A stretch of 25,102 nucleotides of DNA from Clostridia bacterium (GCA_045545475.1 JAZQAZ010000025.1:1-25102); one strand, 5' to 3'; positions 10,571-21,409 are shown, counted from the stretch's first letter. Made by a program: numbers and translations. Notes: generated by a model from the sequence alone, not told the origin.

Positions 10571-10600
10571 GAACTGTCCAAAGGACAGTTCTTTTTGTTT
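10562..10600 (-). terminator. Terminator hairpin immediately downstream of the tRNA 3' end
   Basis: AAACAAAAAGAACTGTCC-AAA-GGACAGTTCTTTTTGTTT, perfect 18-bp stem. Confidence 0.88.
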
Positions 10601-10644
10601 GGTGACCCATCGGAGATTCGAACTCCGGACACCTTGATTAAAAG
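10600..10644 (-). other. 3' half of tRNA-Lys(UUU), interpreted as prophage att core
   Basis: Minus strand CTTTTAATCAAGGTGTCCGGAGTTCGAATCTCCGATGGGTCACCA gives anticodon loop, T-arm, acceptor 3' strand and CCA; the 5' half is absent. Confidence 0.9.
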
Positions 10645-10772: not shown

Positions 10773-13700
10773 TCACTTAAGTCCGCCGCCGGGACCGAGT
10801 CCACCTCCGGAGCCAAGACCTCCGCCGGAGCCTAAGCCGCCTCCGGAGCCGAGTCCGCCTCCGGAACCCAAGCCACCGCCGGATCCAAGCGTTTTCTTAG
10901 TTGTGCTTTTCGTGCTGCTCTTTTTCGTACTTCCACTCCTCGATGAACCGCCCGTAGAACCCACGCGAATGCTGCCTCCATGCCAGGGAGTATCCTTAAG
11001 CGTACTTTCGGCATAATTGCCTACGTTCAGATAAAGATAATCCTTTGCCTCCTCGGAAAATTCAAGAGAATCAATATAATCACAGACCTTCTTTTTCTTG
11101 CTGTTGGTGATTGTTTTTCCAGAAGAATCCTTGTCGGATTCAAATTCATAAATATCCCCGGACGCATCATAAAACTCCTGGCAAGTAAGTCCCGCATCAA
11201 CTGCACCCGCATATTCTGCCGCCTTCTTCTCTTTGCTTTCGGATCCGCTCCACAGCTTTTCAACCGTCGCAATTTTATCTTCTTCCGAAATACCCGACTG
11301 CATAAAGGTTCCCTCGTCAAACTTGCCGAATGCCGAGAATACTTCCGCCATCTCTGAAGGCTCCAGATCATATCCGAGAACTCTATCGGTAAACGCCGCC
11401 CTCTTTTCAGCATTTCTCTCATCGGCTTCCTCGTCAGTCTCCTCGACGTCCTCCGGCTTCTTATATCCCTCGTTTACCGCCTTTTCCGCCGCCGAAATTT
11501 CTAAAAACTCATCAAAGCTCATACCCGCCGAAAGTGCCGCCTCAATCTCATCCTCATGGGAATCCGATATAAGCTCACGATACATCGTACGCTTCGCCTC
11601 TTCCGAATCAAGCCCCTGAATGTAGTCAACCTTCGCAAAATCTTCCGCAAGCCCGGCAAGCTCTTCATCTCTCGAAATGTCCTTAAATCCGGCTACAACC
11701 TCATAAGCGTCCTCTTCCTTCATTCCCTGCTCTACAAGCATACGGTAAGTCGCTGTCTCATTGGCTGATAAATATCCCGCCTCAGATGCATAATAGTCGT
11801 CCGTCTCAGAGAGTGCCGACGGGCCAAACGCAAGCGCCTTCGCCCACTTAAGCGGATTCTTGTTGTCCACGGGATAATAAAGCTTTTCTTTGTCGCCCTC
11901 GCCCGAATACTTTCCGCCATCCGCCATAAGCTTCGCACCCTTTACGGTCTTCATAATCTGATTGCCGCCAGGAACAAACTCTGCAGCAGCACTTCCCGCA
12001 TCAATGAAAAATTCATCCGAGCCAAATCCCTTGCTTTTGCCGGTCTCATACGCCTTTTTTATTTTGGAAATGTCCGGAATCGGGAGCGACCTGTTACCAA
12101 AACCAAAAATCGCCGCAATGGATGATACCATGGGAATATCGTTTGCAAGTTCATATCCCACCTCGGAAAATCCCTTCGTCGCGTTAAATTCTCCGTCACG
12201 GTCAGAAACCTCCATATCCTCCGAAAGGAAAATGTTAAGTAAGTCCTTGCCTCGGTTCTTAAGAAACTCATTAACGGTTTCATCGTTACCGTTAGCAAAA
12301 TATCCTGCCGCCATACCAAGCACGTCAAAAGCTGCAGGTGTTCCGCCCGAAACCGTCTCGGTAAGCCTGTTAAGGATAAATGCAGAAATAAGATAGTTTA
12401 CAATATAGCCGATAAGCTTGCCCTTGTCTTCTTCAGGCCAGTCATAAACGAAATGCTCAAAGGTGTTAAGTGCTTCCGTCTGGAAAAAATGTATGCACTG
12501 ATTGACAAACGCCTTGTTTTCAAAAACAATAGGCCTTGCCCCCTTCATACGGGACGCCATAATGTCAATCGCTTTCTCGTCTGCAGCTTTCACCGCATCC
12601 TCGTGGCTCATTCCGTCTGATATAGCTTTGTTGTAAGCCACCCTGAATGCAAGGCTACTCATCATCCTGTCCATCATTTCAATGGGCTTAAAGCTTGCAT
12701 CAAGCACCTTTCCCGCCTTTGTCTGCTTAAGGAAATCTATGCCCTGTTTCTCCGTAAGTAAATCCGATTCCGTTTCAAGCTTGGTGCGAAGCTCGGGATT
12801 TGTAATAATGTCCCAAAGTGCCCTTGCCGTGTTCGCCTGCCCGTACTCCGCCATAATGATAGGAAGCTGGGACGTCTGATTAATCACTGTACTTAAATTT
12901 CCCGCCAGCTTACTCTTTGCAAACGTTCCGAGTATTTTGCTCGACCACTTAAGCGTCGCTCTGCCCGTCTCCGATTCCTGATTTCTCGCACCAAACGCCT
13001 GCTTTCCTGCAAGAATATTCGTATAATCGTCAAGCCAGGTAACAAAATTTCCAAGCTTTCCGTTTTCCTTGAAAGCCTCCATGTGCTTTTCAATAAGCCT
13101 TGAAATCTCCTCGTTGGCCATTTCATTGGTAATAACCGCGTCCTGTGTCACGCTGGATGCCGAATTTGCCGCAAGGTATGCCTTCTTACTTTCAAGCGGA
13201 GCATAATACAAATCGTAAAGCTTCGATATCTCCGTTTTGTTAATCTCCGGCGAATACATTTCACGAAGATAGTTGGAAAACGCTCTCACTCTCATTATGT
13301 CGTCCATATGGTAGAAAATATCCGCCATATGCATAACATAGCTTTCATAACCTTCCACTGCGTCATACTTCGTCTTGTTCGTCGTTCTCGTCTGGAAGAA
13401 AGGATTCCAACGCTTGTTTGGCTTATAGTCCTTCGTTCTTCCCGCAATGGATGTAGGAAGCTTGGAAACCCCGTCGGTAAATCCCATCCTTTTAAGCACC
13501 GAATCCAATAAATTAACCTGGTCCTCCTGCATATGGGGTGCATAACCCCTTATAAATCCGATGGGGTCCTCACCGTGTGCCACCAAAAATTCATTTATGG
13601 CATCATAGAAAAGGCTGTACTGCTTTTCGAATACCGGCACCGCATTTTTAACTCTTGTTAAATCAATGTGGCCGTTGTTGTTAAATTCCTCACTTGCAAT

Positions 13701-16700
13701 AAGGTGGTCGGCATATCTGCTCGCCAGGGCATAGTCTCCTTCGTCAAAGCCGTATTTTTTAAGGTCGGCTTCGTCTTTGCTCTTGGCAAATTCCGCTCCC
13801 GCCTTTTTAATAATGTCGGAAACACGGCTCTTTGCAAGGTCCGCAAATATCCCCTTGCCCTCAATTTCAAGCTGAACAGCTGCACTCTCCCACTTGTTCA
13901 GCGGTTTAGACTTTCCGTTTTCTCCCTCAAAGGACGAAACCGCAGAAAGTGCCTTGTTTATAAAGCGTATTCTCTCAGCACCATTCGATATTACGGGACG
14001 GAATATCTCTTCGTAAATCCTGCTTCCCGCCTCTCCGAAAATGCTTCGCACGTTTCTCTTCGCCGTTTTGTGCCTGATAACCGGCGCCGAAAGGTCCATC
14101 TTCTTTGCCTCGTCGGGGTTTGCTCCCTCCATAACCTGCTGAAGCTGTCGGCGTAAATCAAATTTAATGTCCCACTTCTTCTGTGTCCCTATCTTTGCCG
14201 CCTTAAAACCGTCCTGTGCTTTATACATTTCTGCAAGGTCCAAAATCAGGTCTCGGCGAAGACTCTCGGGAATATACTTCGCATCAATCTCACCACGGTT
14301 AACAAGCTTTGCAAACTTAATCTCATCGGGAGAAAGAACCCTCTCAACCTCTCTTATGGCTTTCTGGGCTTCTCTCGTTCCCTGCTTCTGCTCTATTGCC
14401 TGCTCCGTATGACCGTAAAGCCCCACACTTCCCGTTATGCCCGTAACGCCTGCAGCTTTAAGCTTCTCTGTTCCCTTCAGCGCATCAAAGTCCGCTTTGC
14501 TCTTGGTCTTAAGCATCTCACGGTGCTCCGCTGTCATTTCCGCCGTCACTTCATCAATGCTCTTAGCTTCGCCGTCTAATGGCTCCCCTGTGTAAGGGGA
14601 GCTGTCAGGCTCAGCCTGACTGAGGGGTTGTTTTTCTCCTTCCGAAGAATCTCCGAAAAAGCCTTCTGCAATTCCCTCTTGCTTTCTGTACCTTTCAAGT
14701 GTCTTTTCCGCAGATGTAACAGCTCTTTCAGAAACCGTCTCACCATTCTCGGGAATGTTCCACGCAATTTCTTCAGGTCCTTTCGCCAATTCAAGCTCTT
14801 CCGCCTTCTTTGCTTCAAGCTCTGCGCTGTATCCTTCAGGATCATCATATGCTCTCTGCCATATTGACTTAATTTCAGAAATTTCCTCTGCATTATACCC
14901 AAATGCACCGGGAACAAGCCTGTTAATTCCTCTAACAATTTCACCGCATACATCGTGGGCGTTTTCAGAGCATATAATTGCATACTCGGCATCAAGCAAT
15001 AATCCGTCCTTGTTAATGTCTTCAACCTGCCACCCTGCAGCATCGATGCTCTCCGCTACTTCTTCGGAAGTATAGCCGCTTGAATCCTCCACAAGTCCCA
15101 TAAGGAATAAAGCTTCGTCATAGGGTGCAGCATAGTCAAGGTTTCCTTCCTCTGCAATGGTGCGCTCTCCTTCAACAACATCACGAAGCATATTAAAAAG
15201 TGAAGGATCCTTTTTGTATATCTCTCGAAGTTTCTCCGCATCAGTAAGCTCTCCGTTATAGGTGAGGTCGTTAAAAAGCTTCTGAGCCTGCTCCATCGTC
15301 GCACCGCTCTTTCTCGCAATGGAATAACTTCCGCCATCCTGCATAGAATAGGTATTGACAACATTACGGCTTTGATGTATAATGGTGTCAAACCCTAAGT
15401 TGTCTAATCGGGTAAGCAATTGGAGCTTACTATCAGCATTCAACTTTAGGGTTTCATTTTTTTCGTCTAAAACCTTTTCAATTCTCGCCTTGTTTACATA
15501 TAAAACAGCATCTGAATCTATAATCTCCGAAAGATGGGATGCAAAATTCTTTTTGCCATACATAGATGTTGCATAATTGCTTTTATCTGTCTTTTGTACA
15601 TTAAATTCTACATCAAGATATTTGCTTCCTTTTTCACTGTATTTAATTGACACAATTATTGGTTCGCCTATGTCATTCTTGAAATTTGTGAGAATACATA
15701 CAGAATTATCTTTGTTGTCAACAGAAATAGAGTCATAAATCATTACAGGACTTTTCAGCATAGAAGGCAATTGCTTAACTATATCTTTATCTATTCCATG
15801 AAGATGAATATCCCCTTCTTCTCTATCTGCGGTAATAGTTCTTAAGTGTCCCTGATTTATCAGCATTGGCAAATCGGCAGGCAAACCTGCTTTTATAAGT
15901 AAATTCGGAGTTCGGCCAACATATACACTATAACCTGATTTTATAAATTCAGGCTTTTCCGAAAGAGCATCTTCAACCTGCTTGTTAAAAGGGAACTCCA
16001 CACTATAGCTAACTTCCCCCGTGCTTTCCCTCTCCTCACTTTCTCTTAGTGCCTGGGAAAGCAGTCTTCTCGCCTGCAGAACTGTCGCCTTCTCGTCGTT
16101 GCCTGTCAGCTTCGCCGAATAATGGGATAAAAAGTCAAAGAATCTGCCCGCCATACTCTGACGATTTTTAACAAGATACTCCACACTTTCAGCATCATTA
16201 AATAAAAGCTTTGCCGCCATCTGTGCCGTAAATTCTCTGTCAAGGTTATATTCAACGCCTGCACCGTCATATACTTGCTCTATCTCAGCCTTTTCCGCTT
16301 TAACATTAATGTCCTCTGTGTTTTCCGCAAGGTCTTTTACAAATTTCACAAATTCTGTATAGCTTTCTGTCCCTTCAATGCTGTGTATAAACTCTTCCGC
16401 CAAAACCTGGTTGCTGATATAGGTTCCGTTGTTCGGATTAACGTATATAACGCCGTCCTTCGCTCTGCCCTGAAGAGTATAAGCATTTCCATCCTCACCG
16501 ATGAAATCATTGTTGCCGCCTAAAAATATAACCTCTCTGCCCGTGGCTCTGCTCATTCGCTCCGCCTCGGCAATCTGTACCTCATTTGCTCCAACAGCTT
16601 CTCCGCTCTGACGGACACGAAGGCTCACGCCTCTGTATCGCTCTCCCTCTTCGGGTGTAATATAGCCCTCCTGAAGCATGGAATTATATAAGTTTCCCAC

Positions 16701-19700
16701 TTCCATAGGCTTTACGCTGTTGTTGTTTCGGTTATGTACAGAATATTCTCCGCCATCCTGCATATACTGGGTATTGACAGCATCACCTTTTGGTGCTATA
16801 CTGTTGCTATGAAGAGACGATTTTCCATTTTGGGCCTTTGAGCCGTTCACGGGGTTTCCCGGGAAAGTTGTCTCTTCTATTTTGTTTAAATTATACGCCA
16901 CCTTTTTCCCGTCGGTTATTCCAACACTAAGCATCATACGATAATATTTGCCGTCCAAATCTCGGAAATAAGCAGTACGATAATTCCATCCATCCTTGCC
17001 GAATCCGTCACTATGCTCCTTTTTAGCCTCACTAAATCCTCTTTTTCCCGGTTTCAGTTTCGATGTCTGCACAATTTCATCAATTACTCCTGCGGCATTC
17101 CCTTTAACAAGATATATATCATTTCCAAGCTTTCCCTGATCTCCCATTTTCCACGCTGTACGTCCTGTGATATAAATTGATTCCCCGTTATCAAGCTCAA
17201 TTTTCACATCCTCGCCATTGCGAACCTTGTTATTGATATAATTCATTATTTCGTACTGTCTGGTGTTTTTATCCTCACTATGTATTACCTGCTCCGTTGC
17301 CTGAACATATTTTCTTCCGTCAGGAAGTGTTTCAATAGAGAAAGCTCCCGCTCCTTCTTCCGAAGGGGCTTTTTCATTGTCTCGGAACTTTTCTGCAGCC
17401 TCAACCGCATTTTCATATGTTCTGCTTCCAAGAGGTGCCGTAAGCCCCTTGTCAATAAGTTCCTTTGTGTTTCCTCGGTAATTAATATCGTCGCCGGCAC
17501 TTTTATTCTTAAAGCCCTGATATACACTAACCATTCCTCCGCCAATACCACCGGAGAAAACTCCCGCAAAAGCTTCGCTTGCAATCGAAGTGGCTAAATC
17601 AGCTCCTGCCTTTCTCCTTGCCTCTTCCTCTGTCATTCCCTGTGCCATATATTCACGGACGGAAATGTTATACTGGCTCTTGTCAGCCATAACAAATGCA
17701 TCCGCCAGCGCATTGGAAATTGAAGTAAGTGCTTCCTCTGTTCCTTCCGTTGCTCCCTGCCTTAAAATGTTTTGGAAAATGCTTCTTGCCGCTTTTATAT
17801 CCTTCGCCTTCAAAAGTTCATCAATTCCGATTTTCTCAAAAACATACTCTGCTCCGCCTGCAAGGATGGAATAGGTTATAATTTGCCCGGTGCTTCCGCC
17901 TCGTTCTGTCGCATCAAGTGCCGCATCACTTGCCGCCGACATTGAAAGGAAAATGGGTGCATAAGCTCCGTAAACCGCCACCGTCGCATAACTTTCGGCA
18001 AAGCTCATTCCCGCATTGTATAGCCATACTGCAGCCTTGTTTAGCGGTTCATACTTAAAAGTTTCACCAATTCTGTCCGTTACACCTTCAGAGTTGGCTC
18101 TTAAAACATATGATGTTCTAAAGTCCTCCGGCTCCATCTCATCCCCGGTCACAATACTTGATGCCGCCGCATCAATAAAATCAACACCCTTTGCAATCGC
18201 TGTAAAAGGTGATGTTGCCACTCTTCCCACAGTAGATATAACAGGATGCTCTTCGCCGAATTCTTTTGCATACTCTGCTTTTTTTCTCGTTTGTCGTTTC
18301 TTTAGTATTTCTGACAACTCTTCAAAATATTCACTTGCCGCCTGCTCACCTTTCGTAAAATGATAATAATTGAAAAGTTCCTTTTCTTCCTCCGTCATAT
18401 ATTTTAAGAAAGAAAATTCTTGTTCATCTATAAAATCGCCTATATCATATTCACTAAACCCATAAAGCTTAGTCTCACCGGCGTCTCTATCCAACAACGT
18501 TCCGCTTTCCGAATCGTAAATGTACCCATCAAGATATCCGTTAACTCCAAGGTACATAAGAGATGCCCCATTTTCCACATTTGGCTCATACTTTGTCTTC
18601 CGGTTTATTAAAACCTGCCCTGCAGCATCTTTCCTTGCTTCCTCCAAAGGTTTTGTCACAAGGTCGGCATACTCCTTGTCATCAATTTCTGTCTTTAGAG
18701 CCTCCTTTTCTTCCATCAAGCGTGAACGTTCCCTCTGTAAAAGCTTTTTATAGCTTCCTTTGGGGGCATATCCGTTCATTTCCTTCCAGGCAATATCTGC
18801 AAGTTCTATCTGCAAATTAGTATAGTGGTGCTGCCGTAAAAAACCGCGGTTTATGTGTTCTCCCTGTTCCTCAAATCCTTCAGGATCGGCTGTTTGCATC
18901 GCTTCAAGTATCAATTCAAGATCTTTTTCAGGATTACCTTTTGCGCTTGTTACAAACTCTAAATCGCTCTCGTTATGTTCCTTCCATCTTGAATAAACGT
19001 CCTTTGCTGCATCGACACTTCTTGTTTCATTTGCCTTATCACGAAGCCAGCTCATCTCTTCCTGTAGCTCCGCCTGTGCTTCGGGTGAAAGAGAATACAC
19101 TTCCCCCGTCTGATAAAGTGCTTCAAGCTCATAAACAGCCGTTACATAATCAGCGTGGGAGGAAATATCTTTATACTTCTCAGAAAATCTTTTATCGTAA
19201 GCTTCCTTTGCCTTATTTAAAAGCCATTCTTTTTCCTTTTCATTTCCGGCAGTTTCAGCCGCAACAGAAAACTCCTCAGGCTCACTTAGATTATAATACT
19301 TCATACCGAACTCAGCATCACTCTTTGCCGCCTTATATTCGCCGATATAGTCTTTTCCGTCACGATTACTCCAAAAATCAAGTTCATTAAGAAGACCTTC
19401 TTCAATATTATCGGAATAGGTTTTCTTCCCGGTAAGAGAATAAAATATATTTTCAGCCTCTCCCTCATTTAGCCACATATCATTGTTCTTAAGGTATATT
19501 GCAAGTGCGCCTTCGCCACCCTGAAGGTATGTGGTTTCCGCTCTGTCTCTTACAAGCTCGGCCATTCTCCTTCCAATGCCTTCATTTTTTCTTCCGGCAG
19601 TTTCATAAAGCACCTTAGTGTTGTCATCATACATCTTTTCCGCCTGATCATATGTAAGATGTCCCCTCGCCGTATTGTCCACAAGAAAACCGATAAGCCC

Positions 19701-20252
19701 TTCTTCGCCCTTATCACGATAGGTGTCCTTTGCTCTGTTCCCCATTCTGAGCACACGGTTTTCTTCATAGTCCGAAGCACTTTCAGAAAAGCTCTTTTCA
19801 TCGGGAACATATTTTCTTCTTATTGAAAAAGCCTCATCCTCGGTTATGCTGCCATCAGAAACCTTGCTCTTGAGATATCCGGTAACGCCAAAATCCCCGT
19901 CCTGAAGGAAATACGTTCCGGCGGTCTTTTCAACTTCCTCAGCAACCGTGGGTTTTGTTTCAACCTTAGAATTGTTTATATAATATTCCGTCTGCTTTTC
20001 ATTTTCCTCATTCGAAAGTCCATTCCAGTATTTAGCTGTAGGCGAAGTGCTTGTAGACACAGCCTTCGGCTGCGGCAAAACTGCCGCAGCCGGATTATTC
20101 ACCGTCGAAGTGTCTAAGACAGAGGAATAGGATCTTTCAGGAAGTTCCTGTTGCTTTTCCCCTGATGACACCACTGGACCTTTTGCAACTCTTTCTTCAT
20201 CCTCTTCCTTTTTTGCAATCTTACCGATTAAAAAATCCCAAATCTTTCCCAT
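10773..20252 (-). CDS. Large polyvalent phage virion (ejection-type) protein with LPD3-like and MuF-C-like BECR domains and a degenerate zincin-like domain
   Basis: ~3160 aa; start ATG 20252 (GAGGTG RBS). MuF-C-like VGRTPNLL..LPMLINQGHL..H..KQLPSMLKSPVMIYDS (~15320-16007); LPD3-like domain (~16740-17342); VLAEEFIHSIE degenerate HExxH; Gly/Ala-rich helical segment. Confidence 0.8.
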   Translation of the reverse strand: MGKIWDFLIGKIAKKEEDEERVAKGPVVSSGEKQQELPERSYSSVLDTSTVNNPAAAVLPQPKAVSTSTSPTAKYWNGLSNEENEKQTEYYINNSKVETKPTVAEEVEKTAGTYFLQDGDFGVTGYLKSKVSDGSITEDEAFSIRRKYVPDEKSFSESASDYEENRVLRMGNRAKDTYRDKGEEGLIGFLVDNTARGHLTYDQAEKMYDDNTKVLYETAGRKNEGIGRRMAELVRDRAETTYLQGGEGALAIYLKNNDMWLNEGEAENIFYSLTGKKTYSDNIEEGLLNELDFWSNRDGKDYIGEYKAAKSDAEFGMKYYNLSEPEEFSVAAETAGNEKEKEWLLNKAKEAYDKRFSEKYKDISSHADYVTAVYELEALYQTGEVYSLSPEAQAELQEEMSWLRDKANETRSVDAAKDVYSRWKEHNESDLEFVTSAKGNPEKDLELILEAMQTADPEGFEEQGEHINRGFLRQHHYTNLQIELADIAWKEMNGYAPKGSYKKLLQRERSRLMEEKEALKTEIDDKEYADLVTKPLEEARKDAAGQVLINRKTKYEPNVENGASLMYLGVNGYLDGYIYDSESGTLLDRDAGETKLYGFSEYDIGDFIDEQEFSFLKYMTEEEKELFNYYHFTKGEQAASEYFEELSEILKKRQTRKKAEYAKEFGEEHPVISTVGRVATSPFTAIAKGVDFIDAAASSIVTGDEMEPEDFRTSYVLRANSEGVTDRIGETFKYEPLNKAAVWLYNAGMSFAESYATVAVYGAYAPIFLSMSAASDAALDATERGGSTGQIITYSILAGGAEYVFEKIGIDELLKAKDIKAARSIFQNILRQGATEGTEEALTSISNALADAFVMADKSQYNISVREYMAQGMTEEEARRKAGADLATSIASEAFAGVFSGGIGGGMVSVYQGFKNKSAGDDINYRGNTKELIDKGLTAPLGSRTYENAVEAAEKFRDNEKAPSEEGAGAFSIETLPDGRKYVQATEQVIHSEDKNTRQYEIMNYINNKVRNGEDVKIELDNGESIYITGRTAWKMGDQGKLGNDIYLVKGNAAGVIDEIVQTSKLKPGKRGFSEAKKEHSDGFGKDGWNYRTAYFRDLDGKYYRMMLSVGITDGKKVAYNLNKIEETTFPGNPVNGSKAQNGKSSLHSNSIAPKGDAVNTQYMQDGGEYSVHNRNNNSVKPMEVGNLYNSMLQEGYITPEEGERYRGVSLRVRQSGEAVGANEVQIAEAERMSRATGREVIFLGGNNDFIGEDGNAYTLQGRAKDGVIYVNPNNGTYISNQVLAEEFIHSIEGTESYTEFVKFVKDLAENTEDINVKAEKAEIEQVYDGAGVEYNLDREFTAQMAAKLLFNDAESVEYLVKNRQSMAGRFFDFLSHYSAKLTGNDEKATVLQARRLLSQALRESEERESTGEVSYSVEFPFNKQVEDALSEKPEFIKSGYSVYVGRTPNLLIKAGLPADLPMLINQGHLRTITADREEGDIHLHGIDKDIVKQLPSMLKSPVMIYDSISVDNKDNSVCILTNFKNDIGEPIIVSIKYSEKGSKYLDVEFNVQKTDKSNYATSMYGKKNFASHLSEIIDSDAVLYVNKARIEKVLDEKNETLKLNADSKLQLLTRLDNLGFDTIIHQSRNVVNTYSMQDGGSYSIARKSGATMEQAQKLFNDLTYNGELTDAEKLREIYKKDPSLFNMLRDVVEGERTIAEEGNLDYAAPYDEALFLMGLVEDSSGYTSEEVAESIDAAGWQVEDINKDGLLLDAEYAIICSENAHDVCGEIVRGINRLVPGAFGYNAEEISEIKSIWQRAYDDPEGYSAELEAKKAEELELAKGPEEIAWNIPENGETVSERAVTSAEKTLERYRKQEGIAEGFFGDSSEGEKQPLSQAEPDSSPYTGEPLDGEAKSIDEVTAEMTAEHREMLKTKSKADFDALKGTEKLKAAGVTGITGSVGLYGHTEQAIEQKQGTREAQKAIREVERVLSPDEIKFAKLVNRGEIDAKYIPESLRRDLILDLAEMYKAQDGFKAAKIGTQKKWDIKFDLRRQLQQVMEGANPDEAKKMDLSAPVIRHKTAKRNVRSIFGEAGSRIYEEIFRPVISNGAERIRFINKALSAVSSFEGENGKSKPLNKWESAAVQLEIEGKGIFADLAKSRVSDIIKKAGAEFAKSKDEADLKKYGFDEGDYALASRYADHLIASEEFNNNGHIDLTRVKNAVPVFEKQYSLFYDAINEFLVAHGEDPIGFIRGYAPHMQEDQVNLLDSVLKRMGFTDGVSKLPTSIAGRTKDYKPNKRWNPFFQTRTTNKTKYDAVEGYESYVMHMADIFYHMDDIMRVRAFSNYLREMYSPEINKTEISKLYDLYYAPLESKKAYLAANSASSVTQDAVITNEMANEEISRLIEKHMEAFKENGKLGNFVTWLDDYTNILAGKQAFGARNQESETGRATLKWSSKILGTFAKSKLAGNLSTVINQTSQLPIIMAEYGQANTARALWDIITNPELRTKLETESDLLTEKQGIDFLKQTKAGKVLDASFKPIEMMDRMMSSLAFRVAYNKAISDGMSHEDAVKAADEKAIDIMASRMKGARPIVFENKAFVNQCIHFFQTEALNTFEHFVYDWPEEDKGKLIGYIVNYLISAFILNRLTETVSGGTPAAFDVLGMAAGYFANGNDETVNEFLKNRGKDLLNIFLSEDMEVSDRDGEFNATKGFSEVGYELANDIPMVSSIAAIFGFGNRSLPIPDISKIKKAYETGKSKGFGSDEFFIDAGSAAAEFVPGGNQIMKTVKGAKLMADGGKYSGEGDKEKLYYPVDNKNPLKWAKALAFGPSALSETDDYYASEAGYLSANETATYRMLVEQGMKEEDAYEVVAGFKDISRDEELAGLAEDFAKVDYIQGLDSEEAKRTMYRELISDSHEDEIEAALSAGMSFDEFLEISAAEKAVNEGYKKPEDVEETDEEADERNAEKRAAFTDRVLGYDLEPSEMAEVFSAFGKFDEGTFMQSGISEEDKIATVEKLWSGSESKEKKAAEYAGAVDAGLTCQEFYDASGDIYEFESDKDSSGKTITNSKKKKVCDYIDSLEFSEEAKDYLYLNVGNYAESTLKDTPWHGGSIRVGSTGGSSRSGSTKKSSTKSTTKKTLGSGGGLGSGGGLGSGGGLGSGGGLGSGGGLGPGGGLK
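10782..10889 (-). repeat. (LGSGGG)x5 plus LGPGGG C-terminal hexapeptide repeat
   Basis: Six 18-bp units with divergent synonymous codons. Confidence 0.92.
14581..14630. repeat. REP-like palindromic element lying in-frame inside the giant CDS
   Basis: GCTCCCCT-GTGTA-AGGGGAGC and GTCAGGC-TCA-GCCTGAC hairpins followed by TGAGGGGTTG. Confidence 0.75.
15355..15383 (+). promoter_or_regulatory. Intragenic antisense sigma-A promoter 1
   Basis: TTGACA-ACATTACGGCTTTGATG (17 nt)-TATAAT, perfect consensus. Confidence 0.8.
15390..15463 (+). ncRNA. Putative small structured RNA antisense to the MuF-C-like domain C-terminus
   Basis: Starts 7 nt after the -10. AAACCCTAAGTTG (15390-15402) pairs with CAACTTTAGGGTTT (15441-15454, 1-nt bulge); inner hairpin GTAAGC-AATTGGA-GCTTAC; T7 tract at 15457-15463. 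Confidence 0.6.
16774..16802 (+). promoter_or_regulatory. Intragenic antisense sigma-A promoter 2
   Basis: TTGACA-GCATCACCTTTTGGTGC (17 nt)-TATACT with TGn extended -10. Confidence 0.75.
16809..16887 (+). ncRNA. Putative small structured RNA antisense to the LPD3-like domain C-terminus
   Basis: GAAGAGACGATTTTCC (16811-16826) pairs with GGAAAGTTGTCTCTTC (16862-16877), 16 bp with two G-U pairs; followed by TATTTTGTTT. Confidence 0.6.
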
Positions 20253-20260
20253 ACCACACC

Positions 20261-21409
20261 TCACAGTCCGGCAAGAGCCTTAATGTCTTCAATACTGTAC
20301 CCTTTAGCTAAAAGTTCTGTTATCAATTCTTTGTAAGCCGCATCGTCTTTATCTTCCTCACTTCCGAAGATTTCATCTGTATACTCATTAAGCTTGTCGT
20401 AGTCTCCCAGTTCCGCCCTTGTTTCAGCAAGGTTATACTTCACTTCATCATCATGCTGTCGGGCATCTTCGTCTAGTAAAGCTTTATTATGCGCCATTTC
20501 ATCATCATGCTGGCTGATTTCTTCGTCTAACACAGCTTGATTATGTGCCATTTCATCATCATGCTGGCTGATTTCTTCATCTAGTAAAGCTTTCTCATGT
20601 GCCATTTCATCATCATGCTGGCTGATTTCTTCATCTAGTAAAGCTTGATTATAGTTCTGCTCCCACACAGCATCGGCCCTTTCATCTTCATATTCTTTTT
20701 CGCTCCATTCTCTGTCATAGTCTTCAGCATAAACATCACGAAGATTCTCCAAATCCTGTTGCTTAAGTTCCTGTTCTTTAAGCCATCTTGAATAAGCATC
20801 TTCCTCAAGCTCAACAGCCTTATCCGCCATGTCCGACATATATTCAGCTTCAGTCTGTGCAGCTGCACGTGCTGCCGCCGTAGATATTCTTCCTCCGGAT
20901 GCCGATGCAATTCTCGCAAGGGTATCACTTCCTGCAGCTTCCATGGCATCGGTATATTGGCTTTTATAATTCGCCCACTTGGAATCATTTTCAATATCAT
21001 AGGAAAATTCATCACGATCCATAAGCTCCGAGCGTCGTTCTTTGTATATGTCTTCTGCGGTTTGCTGTTCACCGACATCTTCTGTGCTGTCAGTTGCTTT
21101 ATATTCAGTTCCGAGACCGTCAATTCCTCCCGAATAGCCGCCCTCCTGCTTTCTCACAGCATTTGCCGATTCATTTGCTACCGCTCTGCCTTCATCTGTT
21201 GTAGCATTATTATAATCAATCTTATAACCCATAAGCTTTTTTCCTGCCTCAGGGTTATTTTTCGCAAGTTCTAAATCCGCATCAGAAAAAGAGCCTGTAA
21301 GTCCGGCACTTTCCACATCCTTTGTAAAATCATCATAAGTATATTTCGTTTTAGGCTGTGGAAGCGTTGCATCTCCAAGTCCTAAAGTAATATTTCCTGC
21401 CACACTCAA
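20261..21409 (-). CDS. Acidic helical phage protein (probable internal virion/ejection protein)
   Basis: 382 aa between the structural gene and the giant gene; ARIASASGGRISTAAARAAAQ motif; start is TTG 21409 or GTG 21403. Confidence 0.7.
   Translation of the reverse strand: MSVAGNITLGLGDATLPQPKTKYTYDDFTKDVESAGLTGSFSDADLELAKNNPEAGKKLMGYKIDYNNATTDEGRAVANESANAVRKQEGGYSGGIDGLGTEYKATDSTEDVGEQQTAEDIYKERRSELMDRDEFSYDIENDSKWANYKSQYTDAMEAAGSDTLARIASASGGRISTAAARAAAQTEAEYMSDMADKAVELEEDAYSRWLKEQELKQQDLENLRDVYAEDYDREWSEKEYEDERADAVWEQNYNQALLDEEISQHDDEMAHEKALLDEEISQHDDEMAHNQAVLDEEISQHDDEMAHNKALLDEDARQHDDEVKYNLAETRAELGDYDKLNEYTDEIFGSEEDKDDAAYKELITELLAKGYSIEDIKALAGL
20435..20650 (-). repeat. 4 x 54-bp (18-aa) repeat NQALLDEEISQHDDEMAH
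   Basis: Four tandem units visible in both DNA and protein. Confidence 0.93.

Follow-up and report, generated by a model that had tools for sequence, protein, structure and literature searches.

The window analysed in this study, an entire contig of 25,102 nucleotides (25.1 kb; G000:C25), belongs to a Clostridia bacterium with a 2.74-Mb genome of 40.8% G+C. It carries on its minus strand a giant polyvalent-type open reading frame (ORF) of 3163 amino acids (aa). Inside this ORF, at the ends of a MuF-C domain and of a second domain, lie two compact units, in each of which a promoter-like site is followed by a closed hairpin and then by a T-run. We use the name module A (overall 15355-15464) for the one at the MuF-C domain and module B (overall 16774-16887) for the one at the second domain; both are on the plus strand and antisense to the giant ORF. 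In this study, we present evidence that modules A and B are, with high probability, selected antisense transcription units. The features concerned are as follows.

10773..20264, minus strand: giant polyvalent-type ORF, 3163 aa (from the ORF call and the Pfam domains of homologues)
15477..15818, minus strand: MuF_C (PF18819) domain, aa 1483-1596 (53.6 and 58.9 bits, cut-off 27.6)
16770..17342, minus strand: second domain, aa 975-1165, without a Pfam name, found at ~40% identity in 13 other genomes
15322..15387, plus strand: direct repeat copy 1, encoding ...TIIHQSRNVVNTYSMQDGGSYS on the minus strand
16741..16806, plus strand: direct repeat copy 2, encoding ...NSIAPKGDAVNTQYMQDGGEYS on the minus strand
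15355..15383, plus strand: module A promoter-like site TTGACA-17-TATAAT, 12/12 consensus
15390..15454, plus strand: module A closed hairpin of 65 nucleotides (nt), 13-pair closing stem with one bulge, starting 6 nt past the -10 box
15455..15464, plus strand: module A T-run, terminator-like, directly past the closing stem, CATTTTTTTC
16774..16802, plus strand: module B promoter-like site TTGACA-17-TATACT with a TG-extended -10 box, 11/12 consensus
16811..16877, plus strand: module B closed hairpin of 67 nt, 16-pair closing stem, starting 8 nt past the -10 box
16878..16887, plus strand: module B T-run past the closing stem, TATTTTGTTT

An earlier note on this DNA had described repeats, promoters, hairpins and T-tracts behind two inserted domains, and all of these were located where it had placed them, with closing stems of 13 and 16 pairs. 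The reading frame of the giant ORF is open throughout both units, as was also claimed there. The two sites share a 66-nt direct repeat (family D2 of the repeat search) with 74% identity between its copies. In module A, the outer stem is formed by 15390-15402 with 15441-15454 and encloses an inner stem-loop with the apical loop AAUUGGA; the sequence right behind the hairpin is CATTTTTTT. At the sequence level both units have a defined 3' end, since the closing stem is followed at once by the U-run. Fold energies are -22.5 kcal/mol for module A (z -4.55) and -33.1 kcal/mol for module B (z -4.25), and none of 200 shuffles was as stable. Two controls from the same gene are unstructured, namely a 10/12 promoter-like site at 12502 (z +0.43) and a third, partial, promoter-less copy of the repeat at 11905 (z +0.30). 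The sites at A and B score highest among the 15 promoter-like sites of the 9.5-kb gene, a total that shows no excess over shuffles (mean 14.7). Genome-wide, TTGACA-N17-TATANT occurs at 132 sites compared with ~4 estimated from base composition, and among the matches listed most precede genes or tRNAs; therefore the consensus predicts real promoters well in this organism. Rfam covariance models gave no match in the window at the gathering score, and hits over 15300-16950 stayed at chance level (E 3.7-7.7).

The unit recurs with the MuF-C domain in other lineages. A covariance model built from nine A-type copies detects it in 7/12 genomes of the genus, with one copy in the host genome of the window (G000). 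Outside the genus, five MuF-C homologues from four other families of the class, at ~30-36% protein identity, all have a consensus-like promoter in antisense orientation at the C-terminus of the domain (L033 and L034, 12/12; L035 and L036, 10/12 plus TG; L037, 11/12 plus TG). In L033, L034, L035 and, as judged by eye, L036, a closed hairpin of ~65 nt begins 6 nt past the -10 box and is followed by a U-run. The nine best A-type copies align without gaps; TTGACA is invariant in 9/9 of them, and the -10 box is TATAAT in 8/9 and TAGTAT in L035. The 15 core pairs of the stem are paired in 86.7% of the cells of this nine-sequence alignment versus 70.8% in column shuffles (0/500 reach the observed value), and sliding the partner by 1-3 columns leaves 22-59% paired, values to be read for sequences that are related and from which the structure itself was derived. 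Both sides have changed in 12 of the 15 pairs. A phylum-level search with a conjugative-type MuF-C segment found nothing in 400 other genomes. As a separate observation, an A-type unit (TTGACG-17-TATAAT, closed hairpin, T-run) lies at 1501-1619 of L063 (G011:C2), antisense to the 3' end of a solo 213-aa ORF. If this ORF is a MuF-C homologue, the unit would extend beyond giant genes.

The 13 other genomes with the second domain belong to at least eight families. Antisense TTGACA-N17-TANNNT is found where expected, at the C-terminal end, in 10 of the 15 homologous loci. All 11 loci that were folded (these 10 and L051) have a closed hairpin 6-9 nt past the -10 box that ends in '...CUUCUUUU' and a U-run. 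The B-type stem sequences differ widely between loci; module B of the window and G004_B even have the same 32-nt promoter, letter for letter, in front of different hairpins. For the B-type RNAs, a MAFFT alignment, which is not a structural one, gave no consensus fold with RNAalifold, and the structural statements on B-type units are based on single folds. The earlier note had named conservation of promoter and stem in homologues as a check, and such conservation was found: the promoter in 5/5 MuF-C homologues for A and at 10/15 loci for B, with covariation of the A stem.

The promoter strand is favoured by the folds. Over 14 modules it is the more stable strand in 10 (mean difference -4.07 kcal/mol), with 30 G-U pairs compared to 14 on the opposite strand, and at 11 distant B loci it is the more stable one in nine (mean difference ~-3.6 kcal/mol). 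The module B hairpin has -31.9 kcal/mol on the plus strand versus -23.9 on the minus strand, and some of its G-U pairs exist on the plus strand only.

Protein and nucleic acid constraints overlap at these sites. The peptide IIHQSRN[IV]VN is widely conserved at the end of MuF-C domains, and the longer pattern '...LQL...LGFD.IIHQSRN[IV]VN' recurs there in 29 rows, from many polyvalent proteins and sometimes two to three times per protein. According to the earlier note, the protein linkers were simply reverse-complemented promoters; this can stand in part at most, since TIIHQSRNVVNT belongs to this conserved peptide. Below the peptide level, the Val under the -35 box is GTC and the Ile under the -10 box is ATA in all seven sequences compared, a combination with a chance of 1/12 per lineage if synonymous codons are equally used, and in each lineage compared GTC is preceded by a codon with T as its last base. 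The residues between the hexamers vary (HQSRNV, RKSNNI, RKTNAF, LPPNGV, RNISEN). Moreover, modules with unrelated peptides retain the hexamers and the 17-nt spacing (SIAPKGDAVN in B, SISYEGQNVN in G004, TIPQKKTVVK in L016a and SIKPSGDSVN in L016c). The residues on either side of LQL, at the inner stem, are solely pairs that can be encoded by reverse-complementary codons (K..L, E..L, G..P, G..S, R..P, R..S). By hand count this rule holds in 29/29 rows of one protein set, judged from protein sequence alone, and in 7/7 of another, rows that are related and thus give no probability. Taken together, the constant codons, the hexamers kept under unrelated peptides and the pairing of the LQL flanks point to selection at the nucleic acid level.

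Copies of the unit also persist outside coding sequence; therefore it appears to be the unit rather than the protein that is kept. L013 (G003) matches the window at 97% identity solely over 15355-15471, a span that opens with the first base of the -35 box and closes with the T-run, and lies in the intergenic space between a MarR-like gene and a Tag glycosylase gene. The syntenic MarR-Tag space in the genome of the window has a different unit of the same design. L021, located between two ORFs of the his operon, joins an A-type promoter to another closed hairpin. L016/L022 (G009:C17, 103-555) comprises three tandem promoter-hairpin-terminator units with broken frames; a truncated polyvalent ORF, which runs on into a further contig, starts shortly downstream of them. 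The proposal that each of the two domain ends bears what looks like a self-contained antisense transcription unit is supported: hexamers and 17-nt spacing persist under changing peptide, stems covary and non-coding copies survive. The sequence architecture, its conservation, the covariation of the stem and the survival outside ORFs are all direct observations.

Three further intergenic units with consensus promoter, closed hairpin and T-run were seen at G000:C40:32068-32330 and 36752-36881. Two of them, D and F, share a 34-nt promoter at 97% identity and have different hairpins; both sites differ between G000 and G003, and no similarity of these units to polyvalent proteins was found. By similarity search at E<0.01, the genome itself contains the two window copies alone. 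In the DNA sequencing run X1, a contig retains 16560-16805 and then continues with 569 other letters that replace 16806-17344, and short contigs match only 15355-15442 and only 16793-16895. Searches with the region found no match in the phage collection (nucleotide and protein) and, in the plasmid collection (protein), nothing or one distant Opitutaceae match. A protein scan of viral contigs found no relative, and the promoter pattern gave one unrelated site there (L023). Among six sites of a metagenome pattern scan none is A-type; L025, L026 and L029 precede ORFs and look like ordinary promoters, L024 is an antisense intragenic site nearly identical to L023, and the other two are L027 and L028. 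The same scan on genome contigs gave six sites, of which five are A-type units, including four that the genus had already yielded; the remaining one, L019, is a promoter before a gene read as S21 ribosomal protein.

The giant gene (~9.5 kb) starts at 20264 and ends at 10773; it is preceded on the minus strand by genes for a holin and an N-acetylmuramoyl-L-alanine amidase. About 130 nt beyond its stop lies a partial tRNA (3' half with T-arm and acceptor end; 10598-10644, minus strand), which has very high depth in 4/4 sequencing runs compared (X1 and X3, DNA; X19 and X20, RNA); no complete tRNA gene was found. The partial tRNA is probably a prophage attachment core (att), in which case the prophage would end with the giant gene as its last one. 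A Pfam search of the ORF recognised MuF_C (aa 1483-1596) as the sole family, and homologues (1.9-4 kb) bear ART-PolyVal, LPD3, PBECR3/5 and MuF_C domains. On account of these domains, the giant ORF is classed with the polyvalent proteins as defined by Iyer et al. (2017; PMC5512222). It shares with its homologues the domain composition of this class, with MuF_C above the Pfam cut-off in the present case.

The earlier note had taken both domains for predicted BECR RNases, the second as LPD3. For MuF-C this agrees with its description as a PBECR (predicted RNase) domain, whereas LPDs are given as domains of elusive function and not as BECR RNases, in the portion of the paper used here (Iyer et al., 2017; PMC5512222). 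The name LPD3 is not confirmed for the second domain. A Pfam search with aa 940-1165 gave no family at E<=1, the LPD3 profile (PF18798) did not match, and in the homologue P0036 the LPD3 match (1366-1480) lies apart from the region homologous to the window domain (907-1100). AlphaFold models of the two domains have low to moderate confidence, with a predicted local distance difference test (pLDDT) of 63 for the second domain and 56 for MuF-C. The last ~30 residues of the second domain, the part that overlaps module B, are predicted to be disordered. The protein tails over both modules are unstructured in these low-to-moderate-confidence models (pLDDT 28-39); the A tail is nonetheless conserved in sequence. 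As the earlier note had stated, no protein immunity gene is visible: Pfam recognised none among the neighbours of the giant gene.

Other repeats of the region are listed for completeness. Five 18-nt tandem repeats (10779-10886) encode (GSGGGL)n at the extreme C-terminus of the giant protein, and a 20-mer is repeated three times at 20492-20600 within a 382-aa ORF upstream of the gene. Two adjoining short palindromes (~14575-14632) lie in frame within the giant ORF; metagenome contigs cover them at depths of 200-900 with many 1-nt indels, and two partial copies are present at G000:C40:16764-16862. They look like a widespread short repeat.

Our preferred interpretation, to which we give an about even chance of being correct, is that the modules are selected cis-antisense small-RNA genes (countertranscripts) overprinted on the C-terminal tails of two domain cassettes. 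Transcription, control by base-pairing and biological purpose are what we infer here from sequence. Potentially, a housekeeping sigma factor would initiate ~7 nt past the -10 box, at the foot of the hairpin; an RNA of 65-75 nt would fold with its 5' end paired to its 3' end, and transcription would end at the U-run. Such an RNA would be perfectly complementary to the giant mRNA, which would bear the mirror-image hairpin. Most likely, and as the simplest mechanism in keeping with this anatomy, it would act as a countertranscript, in that loop-loop contact would lead to a duplex and then to cleavage or a translational block of the giant mRNA. The gene with its predicted nuclease would thereby stay silent in a lysogen, up to the point at which the antisense RNA is outpaced by late transcription. 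Being part of the cassette, the RNA gene would travel with the domain during cassette shuffling.

Several observations weigh against this interpretation. Not every domain bears a unit. The MuF archetype, gene F of phage Mu, contains neither the motif nor a promoter-like site at its 3' end, and a 2165-aa homologue in G227 has a single antisense 12/12 site in the whole gene. L037 is a partial unit with promoter and hairpin and without a U-run immediately behind. Among the B-domain loci, L047, L049, L052 and L054 (4/15) are missing the exact promoter pattern, and in L051 the promoter-like site is displaced from the expected spot. The 15 A-type core pairs form nearly as well on the sense strand (84.4%) as on the antisense strand (86.7%); for A, it is therefore the promoter, the U-run and the broader comparison of folds that decide the strand. 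Since many polyvalent proteins have IIHQSRN[IV]VN and LQL as conserved peptides, part of the DNA conservation is at the protein level. The BECR fold was not recovered by structure search: neither domain model matched the PDB at E<=0.001, and for the MuF-C model RelE-like toxins appear only at E 1.6-3.8. Of 20 sequencing runs that contain part of the stretch, two are RNA (X19, X20), and their assembled contigs, which are unable to show a ~75-nt RNA, leave 15176-15843 uncovered. Finally, the intergenic orphan copies have no cis target and are left unexplained by a purely cis-antisense role.

With respect to known systems, overlapping antisense RNAs at the 3' end are found in the type I toxin-antitoxin (TA) pairs txpA/RatA and bsrG/SR4 of Bacillus prophage regions, and nuclease toxins occur in the type I pairs RalR/RalA and SymE/SymR. 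The modules resemble such systems in their constitutive-looking promoter and intrinsic terminator, in a small RNA that would be fully complementary to part of a putative toxin mRNA, and in being prophage-borne. They differ in that the RNA gene lies wholly within a 9.5-kb ORF, at internal domain ends and twice per gene. Furthermore, the classical type I toxin is a small hydrophobic peptide, whereas the target here would be a 3163-aa multi-domain ORF and the putative toxin a domain of a polyvalent protein. Countertranscripts such as lambda OOP RNA, P22 sar, R1 CopA and ColE1 RNA I regulate lysogeny or replication genes. Like OOP-type RNAs, the predicted transcripts would be ~70-100 nt long and complementary to coding sequence, each having a promoter and a terminator of its own as well as loops suited to kissing contacts; the A-type loop AAUUGGA contains UUGG, which we take to be YUNR-like. 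We know of no countertranscript that is embedded at the domain borders of a multi-domain effector or conserved with a protein domain family. In the literature searched, including the main texts of PMC5512222 and PMC5576092, we found no report of an antisense promoter or RNA within a polyvalent or MuF gene. The main text of Iyer et al. (2017; PMC5512222) contains neither 'antisense' nor 'promoter' and describes no embedded RNA gene. The new aspect is a cis-antisense RNA, in itself of a known kind, that is overprinted on domain cassettes and co-inherited with them.

The possible readings of the units are not mutually exclusive. Among the alternatives, an unlikely one that fares best is a protein-binding RNA antitoxin or decoy, as the earlier note had proposed by analogy with type III TA systems (ToxIN, CptIN, TenpIN), which combine an RNase-type toxin, here a predicted one, with a structured RNA. 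The hairpin RNA would inhibit the overlapping RNase-like domain or mimic its substrate, and orphan copies would protect from injected homologues. The closed-hairpin shape and the apical loop AAUUGGA are kept across families, the A-type unit is tied to MuF-C as a predicted PBECR RNase, the neighbours of the giant gene include no recognised protein immunity gene, and intergenic orphans retain promoter, hairpin and U-run without a target gene opposite. The loop, however, also corresponds to the conserved LQL codons, so that its conservation need not be at the RNA level, and the B-domain has no recognisable nuclease fold. As far as the material on type III systems used here goes, their RNAs form tandem repeats that precede the toxin gene and share its strand, whereas the present units are single, antisense and inside the gene; the repeat search of the window found no tandem RNA array of this style. 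A type III-like arrangement is therefore not supported, and the geometry is that of a cis-antisense RNA.

Somewhat less probable is that the promoter or the mRNA hairpin itself matters. In this case, a strong head-on promoter with a terminator right behind it would slow or block transcription at the ends of cassettes, or the sense hairpin would be a ribosome pause or RNase site that helps to produce or fold separate domains. The A-type sense strand folds as well as the antisense strand, the units lie exactly at domain ends over tails predicted to be disordered, and the RNA barely exceeds its terminator hairpin in length. However, G-U pairs favour the promoter strand in most modules, the U-run is present on the antisense strand only, and the orphan intergenic copies keep the whole unit without a sense gene.

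We consider it very improbable that the modules are recombination junctions or small mobile elements, with repeat and hairpin marking cassette borders for domain swaps, or with an in-frame palindromic insertion, as known from the Rickettsia palindromic elements (RPE), and a promoter look that is secondary. One promoter can be joined to different hairpins (window B and G004_B over 32 nt; the C40 units D and F over 34 nt at 97%), the X1 contig switches to other sequence after 16805, short contigs are limited to 15355-15442 and to 16793-16895, and copies occur at variable intergenic sites. Against this, the genome has just two related copies instead of many scattered near-identical ones, as would be expected for RPE or miniature inverted-repeat transposable elements, neither terminal inverted repeats nor clear target duplications were seen, and perfect hexamers at a fixed 17 nt with a U-run, held over ~30% protein identity, would be left unexplained. 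Hardly credible is a coding by-product, in which conserved peptides (I-I...V-N, LQL, TLKL/NLGF) happen to read as promoter and hairpin: IIHQSRN[IV]VN is indeed conserved in many polyvalent proteins and the genome is AT-rich (40.8% G+C), but codon choice is fixed in every lineage compared (GTC, ATA and a preceding codon ending in T), hexamers are kept under unrelated peptides, amino acids change in step with the stem, non-coding copies retain the unit and the overlapping tails are predicted to be disordered.

Three further ideas were rejected. For an RNA anti-CRISPR, a crude scan found no CRISPR array in G000; the sole candidate (G000:C12:23917-24200) consists of a G+C-rich 36-nt unit that is repeated in tandem about nine times with no spacers between, and is not a CRISPR array. 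For a ribosomal frameshift site, an A-run is indeed present before the sense hairpin, but the spacer is only 2-3 nt, and promoter and orphans would be unexplained. Mimicry of a tRNA anticodon loop was dismissed by eye, as the apical loop shows no U33-like features on either strand.

A more far-reaching reading of the units is conceivable, which we regard as speculative and rather unlikely. The RNA partner of each cassette, overprinted on the strand opposite its last ~40 codons, may be a cassette-specific antitoxin, immunity factor or co-packaged cofactor for the RNase-like domain; chromosomal orphans may be host-captured RNA immunity genes against injected phage effectors; and the C-terminal motif of MuF-C (I-I-x6-V-N, x-LQL-x') may largely be the shadow of promoter and RNA stem. 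If so, they would do with RNA what orphan immunity proteins do with protein.

Provided that the RNAs are transcribed, two conserved small-RNA families would be hidden in protein-coding sequence, in several Clostridia families among the genomes sampled, and genome annotation overlooks such units entirely. RNA stem and promoter would dictate which residues are allowed in the protein tail, which would change the reading of the 'conserved' C-terminal motif of MuF-C. The orphan copies suggest that hosts may retain protection at the RNA level. The units would offer a testable answer to the question how phages and conjugative elements restrain nuclease-type polyvalent domains without a protein immunity gene.

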